From: Eledone cirrhosa
Taxonomy: Eukaryota
Assembly (NCBI GenBank): GCA_964016885.1
Contig: OZ024745.1
Span: 16,926,001-16,990,000, forward strand
Direction: 5' to 3'
Length of the DNA: 64,000 nt
Position numbers and translations under genes: made by a program. Each line of letters starts with the position of its first letter. The first letter of the stretch is position 1. Of this stretch, positions 4,243-25,600 are shown piece after piece. The notes below the pieces were generated by a model. The model saw only the letters and a list, made by a program, of their open reading frames with translations. It did no database searches and was not told the DNA's origin.

Positions 4243-4287
<45 letters not shown>

Positions 4288-4365
4288 CATACTACATATA
4301 TATATATATATATATAAAATAAAGTTAAATAAAAGTCAAATGATTAAAATTTAGCTTCGTTTATT

Positions 4366-4420
4366 ACTGCTATATATATTTCAGTGACAGCCATCTTTGG
4401 CTGTGACCTCTTCAGGCAGT
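4366..4420 (-). ncRNA. Type I minimal hammerhead ribozyme (family A, left arm)
   Basis: Reverse complement of 8314-8368. Confidence 0.85.
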
Positions 4421-5606
4421 TTGAATTAGTATGGTATAGACAAGTACATATGTTGTTTAGGTGTATGATATTGTCAATACTCTGATATGCCCAGTTCCTT
4501 GCTGGGTTGTTAATTCACTGGGGAACTGGAGTCATATGAATTCAAACAAACGAATTTTCGTGTCACAGGTCCCCTTCTCCTCTCATTGGTCAGTTATTAG
4601 TGTTGTCATTGTTGGAGTTAGCTTAAAAATTGATAAAATGGTAGAAGGGACAAGGTGTTGAAGGAACAAAATATCAAAAAATGTGTCAAACTTCCCATTG
4701 TTCAGTTCTGAGAGCATTCCTCAGTCAGAAGTCTATAGAATTCTTTCTGGGGTGAGGCTCCCTGTAGTGTTTATGCCTACTATTGTTCAGTACATTTGAC
4801 CTCCACCATTATTTTGGTACTGTTGTTGTTGTAGTGGTCAGCTTATACCTTGCTGCTGCTAACAATTTAGAAGTATTCAGTTTGTGTTTTCTCTTCATCC
4901 CACCCGCCACCATCGTAGTGGTGGTGGCGGGGGGGGGGGGTTCTTTCATGTATATGAAGAAATATAAGGCAATAAATGAAGAAAACAGAAGATAAATAAA
5001 TAATATAATAAAATAAAATAATTAATATAATTTGTGTAATTTGAAAATAAATAAATAAATAGAGAATAAAGAATAAAGAGTAAATGAGAGATTGGTGAAA
5101 AAGTAATGATAATGTATATGGAGAAGTGAGAAATAATGTAGGATAAAGTGTGTGTGTGTGTGTGCTATAACCAATCTCAAGGTCAGAATATGTTGGATAG
5201 ATTGGTATGAGACAAGATGTTAAGATGAGATATTCAATGTGTTTGTGTTATAATCTATCTCAACTTAAAATAAATATAAGGTTATACAGTGAAGAGGGCA
5301 GAAAACAAATAACAAATTAATAAAGAGAAATCAAGATTTAAGATTGGAACTTTAAAGTCAGAAATCTGGTAAATTAAAAGTGTTTGTGTTATAGATGTTG
5401 GCCAGATTATTATGGCTGTGTCCGATTCTATCTCTAGGCTATCATGGTGTCTGCTCCGCCTGGGTTGTTCCCTATGGCTTGAGGGGAGTTCACAACCTAG
5501 GGTGTTGTAATTGTCCATATAGCTTGAGGGAGGTCTGGCCGAGAGGTATTTTCATGTTCTGTAGAAGTCCCTATAGCTTGAGGGGAGTTCACATCTTCTT
5601 GTGTTG

Positions 5607-5955
5607 CTACTGTCCATATATTTTGAGAAAGGTCCCGGCTCTAAGGTGTCTGCATGTCCCGAAGAAGTCGGTTCTGAGGTTTATCAGGCCGCTTCCACCT
5701 CTTAGTATCTCGAGGGTCTCGTTCAGGCATAGTTTGCATATGCAAGATCCCCCTTTATCGGGTGGTACTTTCCTGATTATGTACCAGGCCAGAGAGTATG
5801 GGGTCCTGTCCAGCTTAAGCTTCCAGATCAGGTCGGAGAGAGCTGTGCTTTTCCTTTTGGCCTCCTTCTTGAATGAATGGCGATGGTTGTACCAGCGGTC
5901 CTTAAAGCTCGTTGATGTGGCTCCTATGTAGAGGTGTTCGGAGTTGGGGGTTTTA
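5607..5955 (-). pseudogene. Inverted duplicate of the C-terminal half of the GIY-YIG endonuclease
   Basis: KTPNSEHLYIGATSTSFKDRWYNH...CKLCLNE...CRH is identical to the end of the 6369-7136 ORF. Confidence 0.85.
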
Positions 5956-6062
5956 TACAATACAGGCAGAGCAAAATCAAATAGGCACCATGTACCAGAC
6001 ACCACCACACGGGCCGTGGGGACTAGTGCGCTTGACCACGAGATGGAGCACAATATGAGTAG

Positions 6063-7136
6063 CAGTCTCAGGCGTGATGCTAACTACCCCAGGACGGACA
6101 ACCCCAACCGCAGGACACGTGGGGGGGGGGAGGAAACGGGCGACCACCTCACGATGGATCTCCCGGGGCAGACAACAACCACCCCACAAATCCGGGCCGT
6201 GATGATAACAAAAAGTATAGAGCCCAAAAGGGAAGCAACAGTGCGGAAACCACCAGCAAACCAACAAATCTCCAACAAATCACGAAGCCCCCAACCCACA
6301 CATATAGGAGGAGACACCGACAAATCACGTGGTACCACCCACCCTACTCAGCGGCCCTAAAGAAAAGCTTGGCCCGATTGTTCTTTGGAGCACTTGACAA
6401 ATGCTTCCCGAGGGACCACAGATACCACAGGATCTTCAACAGACACACTGTGAAGCTTTCGTATTCCACCACGAGAAATTTGGCCCAACACATAGCTAGC
6501 ATCAACAGAAGTAGGCTTAAAAACCACACACAACCGGAAGATGGCAATACAAACACTCAGCAGAACCATGTGAAAGGAGGGAAGGGGGGACCCAGAGCCC
6601 ACCCAAGAAACACAAACAGACCCAAGGACCCCCCACCGAGCATGGGGGAAGACCAACATGTAACACATAATGAGAACCCTAATCTAAGCACGCAGAGGCC
6701 GCCCACCCTCTGCAACTGTAGAAACCCCGAATCATGCCCCCTTGGTAATGAATGTCTCAAGAAGAACATAGTGTACGGTTGTAGGGTTAAAACCCCCAAC
6801 TCCGAACACCTCTACATAGGAGCCACATCAACGAGCTTTAAGGACCGCTGGTACAACCATCGCCATTCATTCAAGAAGGAGGCCAAAAGGAAAAGCACAG
6901 CTCTCTCCGACCTGATCTGGAAGCTTAAGCTGGACAGGACCCCATACTCTCTGGCCTGGTACATAATCAGGAAAGTACCACCCGATAAAGGGGGATCTTG
7001 CATATGCAAACTATGCCTGAACGAGACCCTCGAGATACTAAGAGGTGGAAGCGGCCTGATAAACCTCAGAACCGACTTCTTCGGGACATGCAGACACCTT
7101 AGAGCCGGGACCTTTCTCAAAATATATGGACAGTAG
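6063..7136 (+). CDS. PLE polyprotein C-terminus: linker, WYHPPY/IFNRHTVKLSYS region, Cys cluster and GIY-YIG endonuclease (5'-truncated, no true start)
   Basis: The frame of ORF 6369-7136 is open from 6063: RRHRQITWYHPPYS...DKCFPRDHRYHRIFNRHTVKLSYS...CNCRNPESCPLGNECLKKNIVYGC...LYIGATSTSFKDRWYNHRHSF...TALSDLIW...CKLCLNE...[14 protein letters not shown]. Probable frameshift at the poly-G run near 6121-6130. Confidence 0.85.
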
Positions 7137-8313
7137 CAACACAAGAAGATGTGAACTCCCCTCAAGCTATAGGGACTTCTACAGAACATGAAAATACCTC
7201 TCGGCCAGACCTCCCTCAAGCTATATGGACAATTACAACACCCTAGGTTGTGAACTCCCCTCAAGCCATAGGGAACAACCCAGGCGGAGCAGACACCATG
7301 ATAGCCTAGAGATAGAATCGGACACAGCCATAATAATCTGGCCAACATCTATAACACAAACACTTTTAATTTACCAGATTTCTGACTTTAAAGTTCCAAT
7401 CTTAAATCTTGATTTCTCTTTATTAATTTGTTATTTGTTTTCTGCCCTCTTCACTTATATTTATTTTAAGTTGAGATAGATTATAACACAAACACATTGA
7501 ATATCTCATCTTAACATCTTGTCTCATACCAATCTATCCAACATATTCTGACCTTGAGATTGGTTATAGCACACACACACACACACTTTATCCTACATTA
7601 TTTCTCACTTCTCCATATACATTATCATTACTTTTTCACCAATCTCTCATTTACTCTTTATTCTTTATTCTCTATTTATTTATTTATTTTCAAATTACAC
7701 AAATTATATTAATTATTTTATTTTATTATATTATTTATTTATCTTCTGTTTTCTTCATTTATTGCCTTATATTTCTTCATATACATGAAAGAACCCCCCC
7801 CCCCCGCCACCACCACTACGATGGTGGCGGGTGGGATGAAGAGAAAACACAAACTGAATACTTCTAAATTGTTAGCAGCAGCAAGGTATAAGCTGACCAC
7901 TACAACAACAACAGTACCAAAATAATGGTGGAGGTCAAATGTACTGAACAATAGTAGGCATAAACACTACAGGGAGCCTCACCCCAGAAAGAATTCTATA
8001 GACTTCTGACTGAGGAATGCTCTCAGAACTGAACAATGGGAAGTTTGACACATTTTTTGATATTTTGTTCCTTCAACACCTTGTCCCTTCTACCATTTTA
8101 TCAATTTTTAAGCTAACTCCAACAATGACAACACTAATAACTGACCAATGAGAGGAGAAGGGGACCTGTGACACGAAAATTCGTTTGTTTGAATTCATAT
8201 GACTCCAGTTCCCCAGTGAATTAACAACCCAGCAAGGAACTGGGCATATCAGAGTATTGACAATATCATACACCTAAACAACATATGTACTTGTCTATAC
8301 CATACTAATTCAA

Positions 8314-8368
8314 ACTGCCTGAAGAGGTCACAGCCAAAGATGGCTGTCACTGAAATATATATAGCAGT
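8314..8368 (+). ncRNA. Type I minimal hammerhead ribozyme (family A, right arm)
   Basis: ACTGC-CTGAAGA-GGTCACAGCC aaagat GGCTGTCACT-GAAA-TATATA-TA-GCAGT, followed immediately by AATAAA. Stem I, core boxes, stem II and a palindromic stem III are all present. Confidence 0.88.
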
Positions 8369-8514
8369 AATAAACGAAGCTAAATTTTAATCATTTGACT
8401 TTTATTTAACTTTATTTTACACTACACCGGAGTAACCAAACCAACCTGCGCACTTCGTCGAGTGCTCCAGCCTGCATACTGAGGTGTTGGTATACAACCA
8501 ACATAAACTCAAAA

Positions 8515-8549
<35 letters not shown>

Positions 8550-9870
8550 GATCAAAATAAAACAAATTAAAATACTCTATATTAAGTTCATGTTTGAACG
8601 AGATTATTTTAAATGTAACGGAAATGAATCAGCGAGATGTCGTAATAAAATACATGACATTAGTTGGTTTTATCGGTTAAGTAGAGTGTCTAATTATATT
8701 CCTCTTCCTCTTTGGAGCTTCATCTTGTGTGATGGGCAAATTTATCAAGGAAGAGGAATTCAGGCTTAAACGCTGATTAAACTACATTTGTCTACTTTGA
8801 AAGCACTGTAGACATTGACATCCAGTGGGTACCGACAAAGACTGACGGATTCTCAAACAGTGGTACTGTTTCTTCAGTTCAACTGCAGGCAGTTCCTGAT
8901 TAACCAATTCCGATCCCATCATGTGGTAGATGCAAAGCAATGATAGGATACACTTGAGTTGAAAATAATTCATATGCAAATTTAACCCGAAGCCATATAT
9001 TTGTGAAGTGATCAGTCATAGTTTGGTCCATGTTTATTCATGATATAATGTCTTTAACACATTTACTCTCAAATGAGTAAGAAGTGACATATTTATACAG
9101 ATAAAATACTAAAGATAATATTATTGTTTTCAAATAATGATTAATATCCTTCACGTAAGATAATATACAACGGCAAACTCATATATGTATATGCATATAT
9201 GAGTTTGAGCGTGTGATATTCTATGTAGACATGCGCGAACGTATATACTAGCGAATACAATTAACTACTGGAGCTGACTCATCCATAAATATACTTTATA
9301 TAGTTGTTTTTTTCTGCTACAAAGCACTGACAATAATCCTCCAAACGCTGCAGAACCCAGTGTTCACGTTGTAATGATACGTTAGCGTCGCCATCTCCTT
9401 CCTATCGTACTCCGTGTAGTACCAACATATTTTGTTTCTGCTGCTTGTCACAGTTGTTTCACATCAAATTCTGCATGCACAGCAATTGTTAAATGTCCGT
9501 TTGTGTCGTTATTTATGTTTGGAAACATTAACAGTCACGACTTTCCACGTGTCATTTTATCGAGAAATTTCAGCACGGGATTAGCATATACACTATCATA
9601 CACGCATTCCTTAGAATTTAGAAAACACCGTTTCTTGAAAATATTTAATGACTTATAACAAATACTGCAAGACAAGAAGGAAATAAAACTTTAGAGAATT
9701 GCAGATATCAGTTTTTCTTTTTATAAATCTTTACCCGTTTGAATATCCATAAGTTTCAAATCAATGTTCACAACTTTGTAAAATGAAATTAAAATGAAGT
9801 ACTCTAGTGCATATATTTGCACGCATCGTAGAAGAATATATATATTTACAATCTTTTGCGATACAAGCAA

Positions 9871-15377: not shown

Positions 15378-15621
15378 GGGTGTCACATTATGTTCTGGTA
15401 TTTATACATTTAGGTAGTGGTAAGGGAGGGGTGGTGGATGGGGGGGGGGATTTTGGGGGTAGGATGGTATTTAGATACACAGGACCACAACATGGCACAG
15501 GCCGTTTTTTCTTTGGGGAGTGGTCAATTAGCCAGAGTGCTTTTTTGAAATAAATAAATAAGTAAATAAATAAATAAATAAATGAATAAATAGATAAATG
15601 AATAAATAAATAAAAAAATAA

Positions 15622-16140
15622 ACTCTACCACACCTAATCTAGCTAGGAACTTAGCCAACAATAACATCAAGAAGCTAAATCAGTCTACTTTTTCCGAAGC
15701 CCATCCAGCAACCGTTGGCAATTGCAATTGCCCTGATAAGACTACCTGCCCTCTCAACAACAACTGTCTAAAAAAAGATCTCGTCTATATATGCGATGTA
15801 CTCTCAGGCCCCGATGAAAAAAGAAACTCGTATATCGGGATGACTTCTAACAGTTTTAAGACTCGCTGGTACGCCCACACACATTCGTTCCAGCGCCCAG
15901 ACAAATCCAATCAAACTACACTCGCCGCCCACATCTGGAACTCCATCCCCTTCAAGACCCAATGGAAACTACTCCAGAGAGCGCGATCCTACACGGAAGG
16001 CCTAATTGCTGTGACCTCTGTATCTCCGAGAGCTATGAGATTCTATTCGCCAAAGGCCCTATCCTCAACAAGATCTCGGAACACTCCCCTAATTGCATGC
16101 ACAAGAACTATGCAAATTACAAAAACTACAGACCCCCCGG
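15622..16140 (+). pseudogene. GIY-YIG endonuclease domain of PLE family B (frameshifted)
   Basis: STTPNLARNLANNN...CNCPDKTTCPLNNNCLKKDLVYICDV...SYIGMTSNSFKTRWYAHTHSF...TTLAAHIW...CCDLCISE...LNKISEHSPNCMH. Confidence 0.85.
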
Positions 16141-16387
16141 CCCCCCGACTGACCCCCCCTCCCATATCACCACCCCACCACCGTCCCCCACCCCACTTCC
16201 GTCCCTCCATCTCTCATTATTACCTTCTTTCCTCCTCTCCAGGTTTTATATATTGTGTTGTATGCCTCTGAGTAAAGTTCCGTGGCCGCACACACAAATT
16301 CACAAATTCTGCTCATGTTTGCATATGTGCAGTTATGAACTGCTGCACGCACACGTTCGAGATTTATTTATCTATTTATTTGTATAT

Positions 16388-19200: not shown

Positions 19201-19261
19201 TGTAATTGACGTTTGGTGTGCTCTAATTTACACCCCCCCCCCCCCACACACACACACATAT

Positions 19262-19588
19262 TATTCCAGTTCCTCAGAGAAATAACAACGCAACCAGGAG
19301 CTGGACATATCGTAGTATTGACGGAGTAAAACACACTTAAACAACATGTGTACCCGTCTCTACCCCACCAATTCGGACTGCTTTAAGACGTCACAGCCAA
19401 TGATGACTGTCACTGAAATATATATAGCAGTACATCTTTAATTTATAATAAACGAAGCCAAATTTTACCTATTTGACTTAATTATTTTACATTACTCCGG
19501 AGTAAAACCAACCAACCTGCGTACTTCGTCGAGTGCTCCAATCTGCATACTGAGGTGTCGGTAAACAACCAACACGTACTCAAAATAT
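19262..19588 (+). mobile_element. Solo 3' end of PLE family A with tail and mutated hammerhead
   Basis: Similar to 8200-8516. The hammerhead at 19377-19431 has TTTAAGA in place of CTGAAGA. Confidence 0.8.
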
Positions 19589-19592
19589 ATGC

Positions 19593-19629
<37 letters not shown>

Positions 19630-21955: not shown

Positions 21956-22057
<102 letters not shown>

Positions 22058-22205
22058 TTAGTATATGTTGGTTGTTTACCGACACGTCAGTATGCAGATT
22101 GGAGCACTCGACAAAGTACGCAGGTTGGTTTGGTCACTCCGGAGTAATGTAAAATAAAGTAATTAAGTCAAATATTTAAGATTTGGCTTCGTTTATTAAA
22201 GATGT

Positions 22206-22260
22206 ACTGCTATATATATTTCGGTGACAGCCATCATTGGCTGTGACCTCTTCAGGCAGT
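22206..22260 (-). ncRNA. Type I minimal hammerhead ribozyme (family A)
   Basis: Minus strand reads ACTGC-CTGAAGA-GGTCACAGCC aatgat GGCTGTCACC-GAAA-TATATA-TA-GCAGT. Confidence 0.85.
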
Positions 22261-22431
22261 TCGAATTGGTGTGGTAGAGACAGGTACACGTGTTGTTAAA
22301 GTGTTTTACCCCGTCAATACTCCGATATGTCCAGCTCCTGGTTGGATTGTTATTTCTCTGAGGAACTGGAATCATATGAATTCGAACAAACGAATTTCGG
22401 CAATTTCCGCAAATAAGGAGATCTTCGATAG

Positions 22432-23263
22432 CAACGCGGAATATTACAACGCAGAATATTACAACGCGGAATATTACAACGCGGAATATTACAACGGAAT
22501 ATTACAACGCAGAATATTACAACGGAATATTACAACGCGGAATATTACAACGGAATATTACAACGGAATATTACAACGCAGAATATTACAACGGAATATT
22601 ACAACGCGGAATATTACAACGCGGAATATTACAACGGAATATTACAACGCAGAATATTACAACGGAATATTACAACGCGGAATATTACCACGGAATATTA
22701 CAACGCTGAATATTACAACACGGAATATCACAACGGAATATTACGACGCGGAATATTACAACGGAATATTACAACGCGGAATATTACAAGGGAATATTAC
22801 AACGCGGAATATTACAACACGGAATATCACAACGGAATATTACGACGCAGAATATTACAACGGAATATTACAACGCAGAATATTACAACGGAATATTACA
22901 ACGCGGAATATTACCACGGAATATTACAACGCAGAATATTACAACGGAATATTACAACGCGGAATATTACAACACGGAATATCACAACGGAATATTACGA
23001 CGCAGAATATTACAACGGAATATTACAACGCGGAATATTACAACGGAATATTACAACGCAGAATATTACAACGGAATATTACAACGCAGAATATTACAAC
23101 GGAATATTACAACGGAATATTACGTGGAATATTACAACGGAATATTACAACGCAGAATATTACAACGGAATATTACAACGGAATATTACGTGGAATATTA
23201 CAACGGAATATTACAACGCAGAATATTACAACGGAATATTACAACGCAGAATATTACAACGGA
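22432..23263. repeat. Tandem array of mixed 15-bp (GCRGAATATTACAAC) and 13-bp (GGAATATTACAAC) units, roughly 60 units, inside PLE RT coding sequence
   Basis: Directly visible. Flanked by RT-thumb codons EIFDSN upstream and GALNK downstream. Confidence 0.95.
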
Positions 23264-24737
23264 GCTCTAAATAAGGCGGCGCATGGCACAAATATATCAT
23301 ATAATCCGAGGCGCCATGACGGGGTTAGCCCAACGGATACGCCGACCCACGGGATCTGGGAGAGGAGGAACCCTAACAATACAAGCAAGGTAACAACAAC
23401 TAAACACCATGAACCCGACACCACCACGTTGGCGACGGGCACGCGTACACATATCCATGTGAGGAAATCCAGTACGAGTAGCGGTCTTAGGGGTGATATC
23501 AACCACCCCGTGCCCGACACCCCCCAACCGCAAGACACGAAGCGGGACCGATGGAAGACCATCCCACCGTAGCACTCCCAGCGTGGGTAACAACCACCCC
23601 AGAGATACGGGCCGGTAAGTTAGCAGAACACATAGCACCCAAAGGGGAAGCAGCAATGCGGGAACCACTAGCAACCCAATAACTCCCCAACAGCCCACGA
23701 CACGCTCAACCCACCACATAGGAGTAGACACAGAAAAATCACGTGGTACAACCCACCATACTCAGCGGCGCTAAAGAACAGCATGGCCCGCTCATTCTTT
23801 AGAGCACTAGATAAATGCTTCCGAAGGACCATAGATACCGAAAGATCTTCAACAGACACACTGTAAAGCTCTCATATTCTACCACGCGAAATGTGGCCCA
23901 GCACATAACTAGCATTAATAGGGGTAGACTTAAAAACCACACACAACCGGAAGCTGGCAATATAGGCACCCGGCAGAACCATCTGGAGGGAAAGAGGGTG
24001 GATCCAGTAACCCAAACAGAACCAGGGACCCCCACCGGGCCCGGGGGAGGACCACCATATAATACGTAACGGGAACCCCACATTAGGTACGTGGAGGTCG
24101 ACCACCTCCTGCAACTGCAGAAACCCAGCATTATGACCCCTTAGTAATGAATGCCTAAGGAAGAACTTAATATACGGATGTAGAGTAAAACCCCCCGACT
24201 CTAAACACCTTTACATAGGAGCCACATCAACGAGCTTTAAGGACCGATGGTATAACCATTGCCATTCCTTTAACAGGGAGGACAAAAGGAAAAGTACGGC
24301 TCTTTCCGAACTGATCTGGAAGCTCAAGCTGGACAGGACACCATACTCTTTGGCCTGGTCCAAAATCAGGAAAGTACCACCTGATAAAGGGGGATCTGAC
24401 ATCTGCAACCTATGTCTGAGCGAGACCCTGGAGATACTCAGCGGTGGAAGCAGCCTAATAAACCTCAGGACTGACTTCTTCGGGACATGTAGACACCTCA
24501 GGACCGGGACCTTCCTCTAGCTATATGGGCAACAACAACGCATTGGGAAGGGAACTTCCCTCAAGCTATAGGGTCAGTAGCCCGCAACACCGAGCCCACG
24601 GTAAACCACCCCTACACTTTCACCACCGTTACCCCTGCCTCGATCGACTCCTATGGCAGCACAGACGTATGCATATGTCCATACTTAGATCCTGTTATTT
24701 AAGATTGTACATGCACCGATACTTACGTATGTGTGTA

Positions 24738-24791
<54 letters not shown>

Positions 24792-25379
24792 CGTGTGTGT
24801 ACGTGTGTGCGTGTGTGTGCGAGTATATATATACATATATATATGTGGGTGTGTGTATGTTTGTATAATCTGTGTGCGTGTGGGTGTGAGTGAATATGGG
24901 ATGCACCTGGGCCCGTGTTGGTGCGTGTGGGCTTGCAACGATGTGGGTTGACATACACGCATATGTACTCTATGCCGAATTAAAAACTGTAGTCCTCTGC
25001 ATTTCCGGATTTTGACACTCAGGTTATGGTGTTTTACACTTCACTCTTACCTCATTTGCTCTTAAAACGCACCACCCCATGATAGTGTAAAGATCGGAAT
25101 CCTTTGCATTTCCCGATTCTGACACATAGCCTTTATACTTCAGTCAATATTTTCCAAACCTTTCAAACTTTAATATTGGCTATAACACACACGCACTTTA
25201 TTTTTCTTTGATATTTGATATTGGCTATGACAAACACGCATTCTGTTCTATTTTATTCATTTATTTTTTTTTTTCTTCTTCATTTTATTGTATCGTATCT
25301 TATTATTTTATTATTTATTCTATCTTATTTTTTTATATTTTATTTCGTCATTTTACCTTATCTGATTCCATTATCTGTT

Positions 25380-25600
25380 TGGGCGGTGGATTGGCAGTAT
25401 CGGTAGAGGGTCGGACGCCAAAATTTACTGCTATTGGTTCGACACAAAGCCAAGTTTTCGTAGTTATCCTTGTCTGCAAATGTTGAAGTGGATTCAATTG
25501 AGACGAGTAATTTACGGAGGAAAGTTCGATAATAGTGAAATTTGAACTCAGAATGAGGAAATAAAATTGAATGTCTTAAGGCATTTCGCGAAAATTTAGT
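25380..25600 (+). mobile_element. Degenerate tRNA-derived SINE (family S1 head)
   Basis: GGCGGTGGATTGGCAGTATCGGTAGAGGGTCGGACG matches the heads at 28682(-), 32762 and 61605. Confidence 0.55.

Follow-up and report, generated by a model that had tools for sequence, protein, structure and literature searches.

The window analysed here is a 64,000-nucleotide stretch of the Eledone cirrhosa genome (GCA_964016885.1, contig OZ024745.1, positions 16,926,001 to 16,990,000), a microsatellite-rich genome of ~3.0 Gb with AACCCT telomeric repeats. At 22432-23263 of its forward strand lies a tandem array of 832 bp (TRF score 1185), which interrupts the reading frame of a Penelope-like element (PLE) that runs on into a GIY-YIG-like domain. 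The outer end of the insertion is an (AT)n run, the usual target of the family (22040-22057, recognised from the sequence), overlapped by the outer few bases of an inverted pseudo-LTR (pLTR) of the same family (22047-22402, minus strand; reference -1761 to -1416 by blastn against family copies). A regular-expression match within this arm (22219-22255, minus strand) identifies a hammerhead-core-like CTGA-N-GA...GAAA, a motif only, which has no Rfam match at E<=1. The inversion junction, with a 3-nt filler (22403-22405), is followed by 26 bp of unduplicated text, the 5' stub with which the truncated sense body begins (22406-22431, plus strand, 96-100% match to other copies), the array itself, the remaining ORF (23264-24520, plus strand; post-RT region, CxCX5C linker and GIY-YIG endonuclease, with stops and frameshifts) and the 3' untranslated part of the element (24521-25418, plus strand), after which the 3' pLTR present in other copies was not found. 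In a copy whose ORF is cut short and disrupted, the array serves no coding function. The preliminary description had correctly seen an inverted element segment upstream of the array, and had placed the array ~40 bp from the inversion junction; the distance is 26 bp, as the sense body starts at 22406. Around the junction (22390-22414) there is an imperfect 9-bp repeat, AATTTCGGC AATTTCCGC, so that the filler, which is very short, may be templated from the inverted arm.

Set against the description in PMC8557442, the motifs of the host element match those of the Hydra clade, a group among the C-terminal EN+ Penelope-like elements treated in section 11 of that paper. As in the part of that account concerned with this clade, there are DKT, a CxCX5C linker, CxxC and CxH around E/N residues, a C-terminal GIY-YIG, pLTRs, inverted 5' copies and (TA)n targets. 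Family ORFs contain DKT (in L184, not in L117), YRDD, CxCX5C, YIG, CxxC and CxH; in L184 a single open frame of 856 aa includes both YRDD (318) and YIG (754), and the open frames of young relatives reach 938 aa. Unlike the clade as described there, RWK was absent from the two family ORFs scanned, both of which may start downstream of it, and the window copy is truncated and broken. Profile searches gave PF01541 on 24140-24517 (E 0.00068; 20.3 bits, under the 22.6 cut-off) and RVT_1 on the homologue P0003 (Pfam, E 0.004), with no Pfam match for the RT domain on ORFs of the window's PLE family and nothing meaningful from a PDB sequence search. As the pLTR, the reference segment -1890 to -1416 is found again on the downstream side of bodies. 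An inverted element arm is present at 157/262 family junctions, such arms being normal in PLEs generally according to passages of PMC3846280 and PMC8557442, and (TA)5 lies within 40 nt at 51 of the 105 non-inverted junctions.

Further PLE sequence is present in the window: a second, more diverged copy of the same family (~79%) at 4250-8550, with a large fold-back centred near 5960; a solo pLTR fragment, also from this family (19257-19596, plus strand); and an open frame from another PLE family, containing a linker and GIY-YIG-like text (15606-16271). Across the ORF stop of the array-bearing copy (24473-24573) lies a 99-100 bp unit, single here, which many copies of the family carry two, three or five times in tandem, and at 25381-25420, where the copy ends, a 40-bp segment has extreme depth in public runs, often head to tail. 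A ~1-kb high-copy element flanked by (TA)n (1384-2365; 2541 candidates, ~93% identity) was also noted. Its internal 93-bp array at 1631-2050 was considered as a parallel case and rejected, being family-level and common to copies of this other element.

The parent of the array can be read from sister copies. In all 17 of the other copies shown, the parental site is a single unit that ends GCA before GCTCTA and encodes N-A-E-Y-Y-N-A-A-L-N-K or a point variant of it. The family text has the form A-B-A', CAACGC-GGAATATTA-CAACGC (segments distinct from the unit types named below), and is present as a single unit at 354 or more genomic sites; its seventh base varies between G and A among copies. Across three subfamily sets the single-unit site was found in 17/17, 29/29 and 26/29 relatives, the three exceptions in the last set comprising one copy with a deletion in the site and two without the site. 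It lies 107 residues past YRDD, beyond the catalytic core, in a region that would correspond to the thumb. TRF, unit parsing and comparison with these copies thus bear out the origin of 22432-23263 (plus strand) in PLE coding text, where one copy of the family text CAACGC[G/A]GAATATTACAACGCA (codons N-A-E-Y-Y-N-A) has grown into a minisatellite of 59 units. The parental text proposed earlier, CAACGCGGAATATTACAACGGA, turns out to be a chimera of the array's two ends: none of the 17 copies ends GGA, and all end GCA, which removes from the template the CGGA...CGGA repeat that had been offered as a second, 13-bp register. The family text shares CAACGC (6 bp) at period 15, and CG...CG only (2 bp) at period 13.

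Runs X18-X20, from one sample, differ from the assembly at 4/1394 flank bases, and each yields a 101-nt contig that matches 22946-23044 with one difference at depth 6-13 (flank 3-9), close to single copy, plus other pieces of the array. As regards variation in length or structure between alleles, contigs of a sample other than the assembly's reach part of the blocks, one of which differs, and leave 22646-22815 and 23088-23189 uncovered, gaps that are uninformative. The RAD-seq runs X21 and X22 do not cover the array. No public contig or read spans it, so the 832-bp length is that of the assembly and an assembly artefact could be imagined, an outcome that the preliminary description had named as fatal to its proposal; the near-single-copy contig and other array pieces in X18-X20 and the intact flanks on both sides make such an artefact extremely improbable.

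When split at GAATAT, the array comprises 59 units, of which 29 are short (12-13 bp), 29 long (15 bp) and one is the end unit, in the order BCCABACAABACCABACFIDEJACKCDEGABACFBACDEGACABABAAHABAAHABABL. The commonest types are A (GAATATTACAACG, 13 bp, n=21), B (15 bp, ending CGCA, n=11) and C (15 bp, ending CGCG, n=11); nine rarer types make up the rest (D and E, n=3 each; F, G and H, n=2 each; I, J, K and L, n=1 each). A template with either G or A at the variable base makes one 15-bp type, and B and C are therefore not both expected from one parent. Independent CpG decay as the source of B units was ruled out, since by hand count 13 of ~28 sites have changed at one CpG and almost none at the others.

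The order of units is far from random. The array had been described as an irregular mix of two periods; two main periods are indeed present, but short and long units alternate at 44 of 57 steps against a shuffled mean of 28.95 (p ~1.5e-4), which speaks equally against random choice of register. The longest unit-level repeat spans 8 units (p 0.003 by shuffling), and distinct unit 3-mers and 4-mers fall far below their shuffled counts (p <1e-4). Exact internal repeats of 120, 95, 86 and 83 nt recur at periods of 66, 140, 155 and 226, including an 86-nt block carrying the rare variants D, E and G (22791-22876, plus strand), which recurs 155 bp downstream, and a 120-nt match of period 66 that contains the 12-bp H unit (23061-23180, plus strand). 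The variant blocks reported earlier are present: the linked series D-E-(G/J) occurs three times (P 1.1e-9 under random order) and the block TTACGTGG twice. Unit F, like H, occurs twice, and both H units stand in an identical 8-unit context that was matched by 2 of 200000 shuffles. With unit pairs preserved, longer-range order reaches significance for the register classes only (p 0.008-0.011; 4-mers p 0.008), the full alphabet giving p 0.06-0.50. Removal of exact adjacent duplicates leaves a 38-unit root, compared with a shuffled mean of 44.2 and 17/300 shuffles as short, although the observed string was given more search effort than the shuffles; nested exact duplications accordingly do not explain the whole order, older events having been blurred.

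The array is also too uniform for its setting. The host body carries 32-38 private substitutions in 1136-1297 aligned columns (2.5-2.9%, measured against its 8, 15 or 25 nearest relatives), the closest relative being 95.8% identical. Had the array been static since insertion, ~21 singleton variants would be expected, and three are found (P 1.6e-6); the probability is 5e-5 at a 2% rate, which allows part of the private changes to come from an unsampled source lineage, and 3e-3 if about nine distinct array changes are counted instead. With so few private changes, most of the array's length either postdates the insertion or has undergone later homogenisation, and most of the array is likely to be the product of later DNA-level duplication. 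Some duplication of this kind had been suspected, and the multi-unit blocks, inherited variants and youth of the array uphold it.

The larger claim of the preliminary description, that the PLE reverse transcriptase synthesised the bulk of the 59 units by a single reiterative run over one template in two registers, does not survive these results and is very improbable. It draws on the two main periods, the nearby junction and the relationship of the enzyme to telomerase, as set out in part of PMC12632851. The template, however, has no 4-bp second register; pure A-B units account for just 11 of the 59 whichever parent, G or A, is assumed, B and C occurring 11 times each; point variants are inherited along the array, an outcome that the recopying of an RNA template cannot give; the order is non-random and private changes are sevenfold too few; and no young copy among 296 bodies of the family holds an element-derived array of more than four units.

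Expansion of the same 15-bp site is rare. An exact tandem pattern of the site was found genome-wide at the window and at two other loci only, L061 and L062; allowing up to three mismatches added no further tandem loci, the control pattern read backwards gave 0 genome-wide matches, and genome pattern searches found no two-copy version. Each of the two loci holds three perfect C-type units. L062 is a young copy, 98-99% identical to its relatives, in which the units start exactly at the junction, where the body has its 5' end, while this insertion's sister arm is single-unit; in L061 the units lie 1455 nt from the junction, which indicates that the site can duplicate without one. (In L061 a 48-bp unit is also repeated 10 times ~500 bp beyond the PLE 3' pLTR, at reverse strand 6930-7416.) Shared descent of the three expansions was ruled out: the copies are 75-82% alike, and L061 and L062 come from other subfamilies, in which relatives have the single unit (29/29 and 26/29), so the events are independent.

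To place the window among its family, we surveyed 296 unique bodies (504 kb), 265 of them with a visible 5' junction; this sample is not random, being the top-scoring or first-listed places, mostly on contigs C1-C3, out of several hundred to a few thousand, and in the genome search with the downstream body 40 of 2135 candidates were scored. The window, L280, L341 (a duplicated host flank) and L012 (a family-level 99-bp repeat) were left out of the duplication counts. A strict test found a private duplication at 5/262 5' junctions (L062, L240, L263, L230 and L255), against a mean of 0.2 with swapped flanks (maximum 1 in 40 rounds) and 0/1953 internal points (Fisher p 2.2e-5, points treated as independent). 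A broader list gives 7 events within 45 nt of a junction, the additions being L171 (33 nt) and L112 (where the event lies in a short inverted arm), and five internal events (L095, L127, L061, L014 and L098); near-junction sequence is 3.9% of the total surveyed (enrichment p 9e-8). The suggestion that arrays gather near PLE junctions is borne out in a weaker form, that of short private duplications. By inspection, the events show microhomologies of 0-4 nt. At the junctions, sense text of the body has mostly been duplicated directly, and in L230 the duplicated 28-mer extends across the joint between arm and body, which means that DNA was its template. At inverted junctions microhomology peaks at 2 nt (38/157), and patch-like templated fillers occur (e.g., L314 and L135), with no clearly snap-back-templated filler among family junctions. 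A control set of internal deletions showed templated duplication at 0/13 junctions, too few for comparison. Among openly accessible papers listed in literature searches, no title or opening of an abstract reports duplications of this kind at PLE junctions.

One surveyed locus, L280 (1632-1697; G000:C20, ~22432050), is a fold-back PLE insertion with 62 nt of telomere-like filler (AACCCT, AACTCT, AACAACCCT) between its arms, beside the PLE text GAACCCTAACAAT. Its reading as two-register reiteration on the PLE text AACCCTAACAA was dropped because the same variants occur in host telomeric arrays: elsewhere the filler variants were telomeric at 9/9 single sites fetched and 2/2 interstitial loci shown, none of them near a PLE. 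This filler could as well have come from captured telomeric DNA or from the action of telomerase as from PLE templating. On G000:C6 (61.72-61.76 Mb; L359-L370), an interstitial telomeric array, degenerate and tens of kb long, flips orientation near 61.735 Mb, possibly marking an old end-to-end fusion.

From these observations it is plausible that a seed of two or three units was made in the window copy during insertion, and DNA-templated end joining appears slightly more likely to have made it than the PLE reverse transcriptase acting on RNA. Our tentative reading, which we regard as quite possible, combines a DNA-templated slip-back during insertion with subsequent minisatellite expansion. 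The cDNA would have ended 26 nt upstream of A and been joined to the inverted pLTR; during DNA-templated joining or second-strand synthesis, most likely of polymerase-theta type, realignment of A to A' once or twice would have left two or three identical 15-bp units, as in L062. That the seed afterwards behaved as an ordinary minisatellite is, by contrast with the details of its birth, very probable. The 13-mer may have come from one 2-bp loss and the second 15-mer from misalignment with the terminal CAACGCAG or from a CpG change; 28-bp short-plus-long dimers would then have been amplified, and point changes would have arisen and been carried in blocks of 66, 140 and 155 bp. Against this reading stand the position of the window array, which begins 26 nt inside the junction in a manner matched by one other survey event (L171, 33 nt), and the same triplication in L061 at 1455 nt from its junction. 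In addition, both other events at the site are three-copy, with no two-copy locus, as would suit a site-specific reiterating polymerase such as the reverse transcriptase. The incompletely reduced unit order, the limited significance of its longer-range structure and the family's want of clearly snap-back-templated fillers also count against it.

The seed may instead have arisen through slippage of the PLE reverse transcriptase from A to A' on its own RNA, for one to a few rounds near the end of first-strand synthesis, after which the enzyme ran on for 26 nt and stopped and DNA turnover did the rest; we consider this a possibility of modest weight. The template is a true A-B-A', the arrangement needed for repeat addition (according to the relevant passages of PMC12632851), L061 and L062 hold the pure A-B units that such slippage predicts, and in L062 these stand at the very 5' end of the body, with the sister arm single. 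Among 12 other private duplications three copies were seen only at the two events of this site (1 in 66 by hand), and direct copying of sense body text, common at the junctions, suits an RNA template. A hairpin is predicted 26-45 nt upstream in 4/4 copies folded at 121 nt, and the window body starts at its 3' foot; this hairpin is no better than shuffles (z -0.7 to -1.5), truncations are not piled up there (5/61 in the 25-nt bin), leaving it unsupported as a template boundary, and it could equally stall a DNA polymerase on cDNA. L230 requires DNA templating, and the site, read through once in no fewer than 354 copies, is itself no template boundary.

Alternatively, the seed could be a tandem duplication that arose during replication through microhomology and had nothing to do with the junction, the 26 bp being due to chance. 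The 6-bp flanking repeats fit the Haber-Louis model as presented in passages of PMC3389668 and PMC13167724, L061 was triplicated far from its junction and five private duplications are internal. Yet a junction as near as that of the window occurs in 6/178 site-bearing copies and in 2/3 expanded ones (p 0.004 with the window, 0.07 without it), and we consider this origin unlikely.

However it was seeded, the array is a transposable element (TE)-derived minisatellite, an ordinary outcome, and no record of long telomerase-like synthesis. It consists of a TE unit within 10-100 bp repeated head to tail with a short bounding direct repeat, followed by multi-unit growth after insertion, and it shares with the cases treated in parts of PMC3389668 and PMC13167724 a retroelement unit, a short bounding direct repeat, an incomplete terminal unit and later local duplication. 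In contrast to those cases, whose passages do not concern PLEs, the parent here is known from hundreds of sister copies and there are two independent three-unit stages, so that birth and growth can be aligned. The family junctions in turn resemble polymerase-theta joints, for which small, iterative, patchwork templated insertions are a hallmark in the relevant passage of PMC12426944, and the 5'-truncated R1/R2 junctions with microhomologies and extra bases described in part of PMC2718515: microhomology is mostly 1-4 nt, and fillers are mostly <30 nt, drawn from beside the joint and sometimes iterated. Short microhomology with local filler is thus seen at family junctions, the window's own 3-nt filler being uninformative. 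Unlike the joints of PMC12426944, the window's seed lies 26 nt inside the joint, and snap-back fillers are not clear.

The likeness to telomerase and DRT10, as portions of PMC12632851 present them, consists of the A-B-A' text, the pure A-B units of L061 and L062 and a related reverse transcriptase; the PLE site differs in having no template boundary, hundreds of read-throughs and at most two extra rounds in other copies, and in a long array with mixed units and inherited variants. The TGTAA repeats of UnaL2 at LINE 3' ends, in the relevant part of PMC3747384, likewise involve realignment of a reverse transcriptase on short repeats of its own RNA, but arise at the start of synthesis, the 3' end, whereas those of the PLE lie where synthesis ends, at the 5' junction, or inside the ORF. 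Passages of PMC2837659 note reiterative synthesis for the HIV enzyme and state that none had been reported for that of L1.

The locus completes a natural series of one unit (at least 354 sites), three units (2 sites) and 59 units (1 site), to which the survey adds a clustering of short templated duplications at the 5' junctions of PLEs. It also offers a defined 15-nt A-B-A' template for asking whether a PLE reverse transcriptase adds repeats, and an in vitro PLE assay exists, as described in part of PMC11167929. We advance, as a rather doubtful hypothesis, that the enzyme of Hydra-clade PLEs carries out short repeat addition in vivo at the A-B-A' site of its mRNA, for two or more rounds and mostly as the cDNA ends, and that three independent insertions record this activity, one of which became the 59-unit minisatellite. 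If true, PLE repeat addition would have left in the genome a trace of proto-telomerase behaviour from the sister group of telomerase, and would provide a route for the birth of minisatellites.
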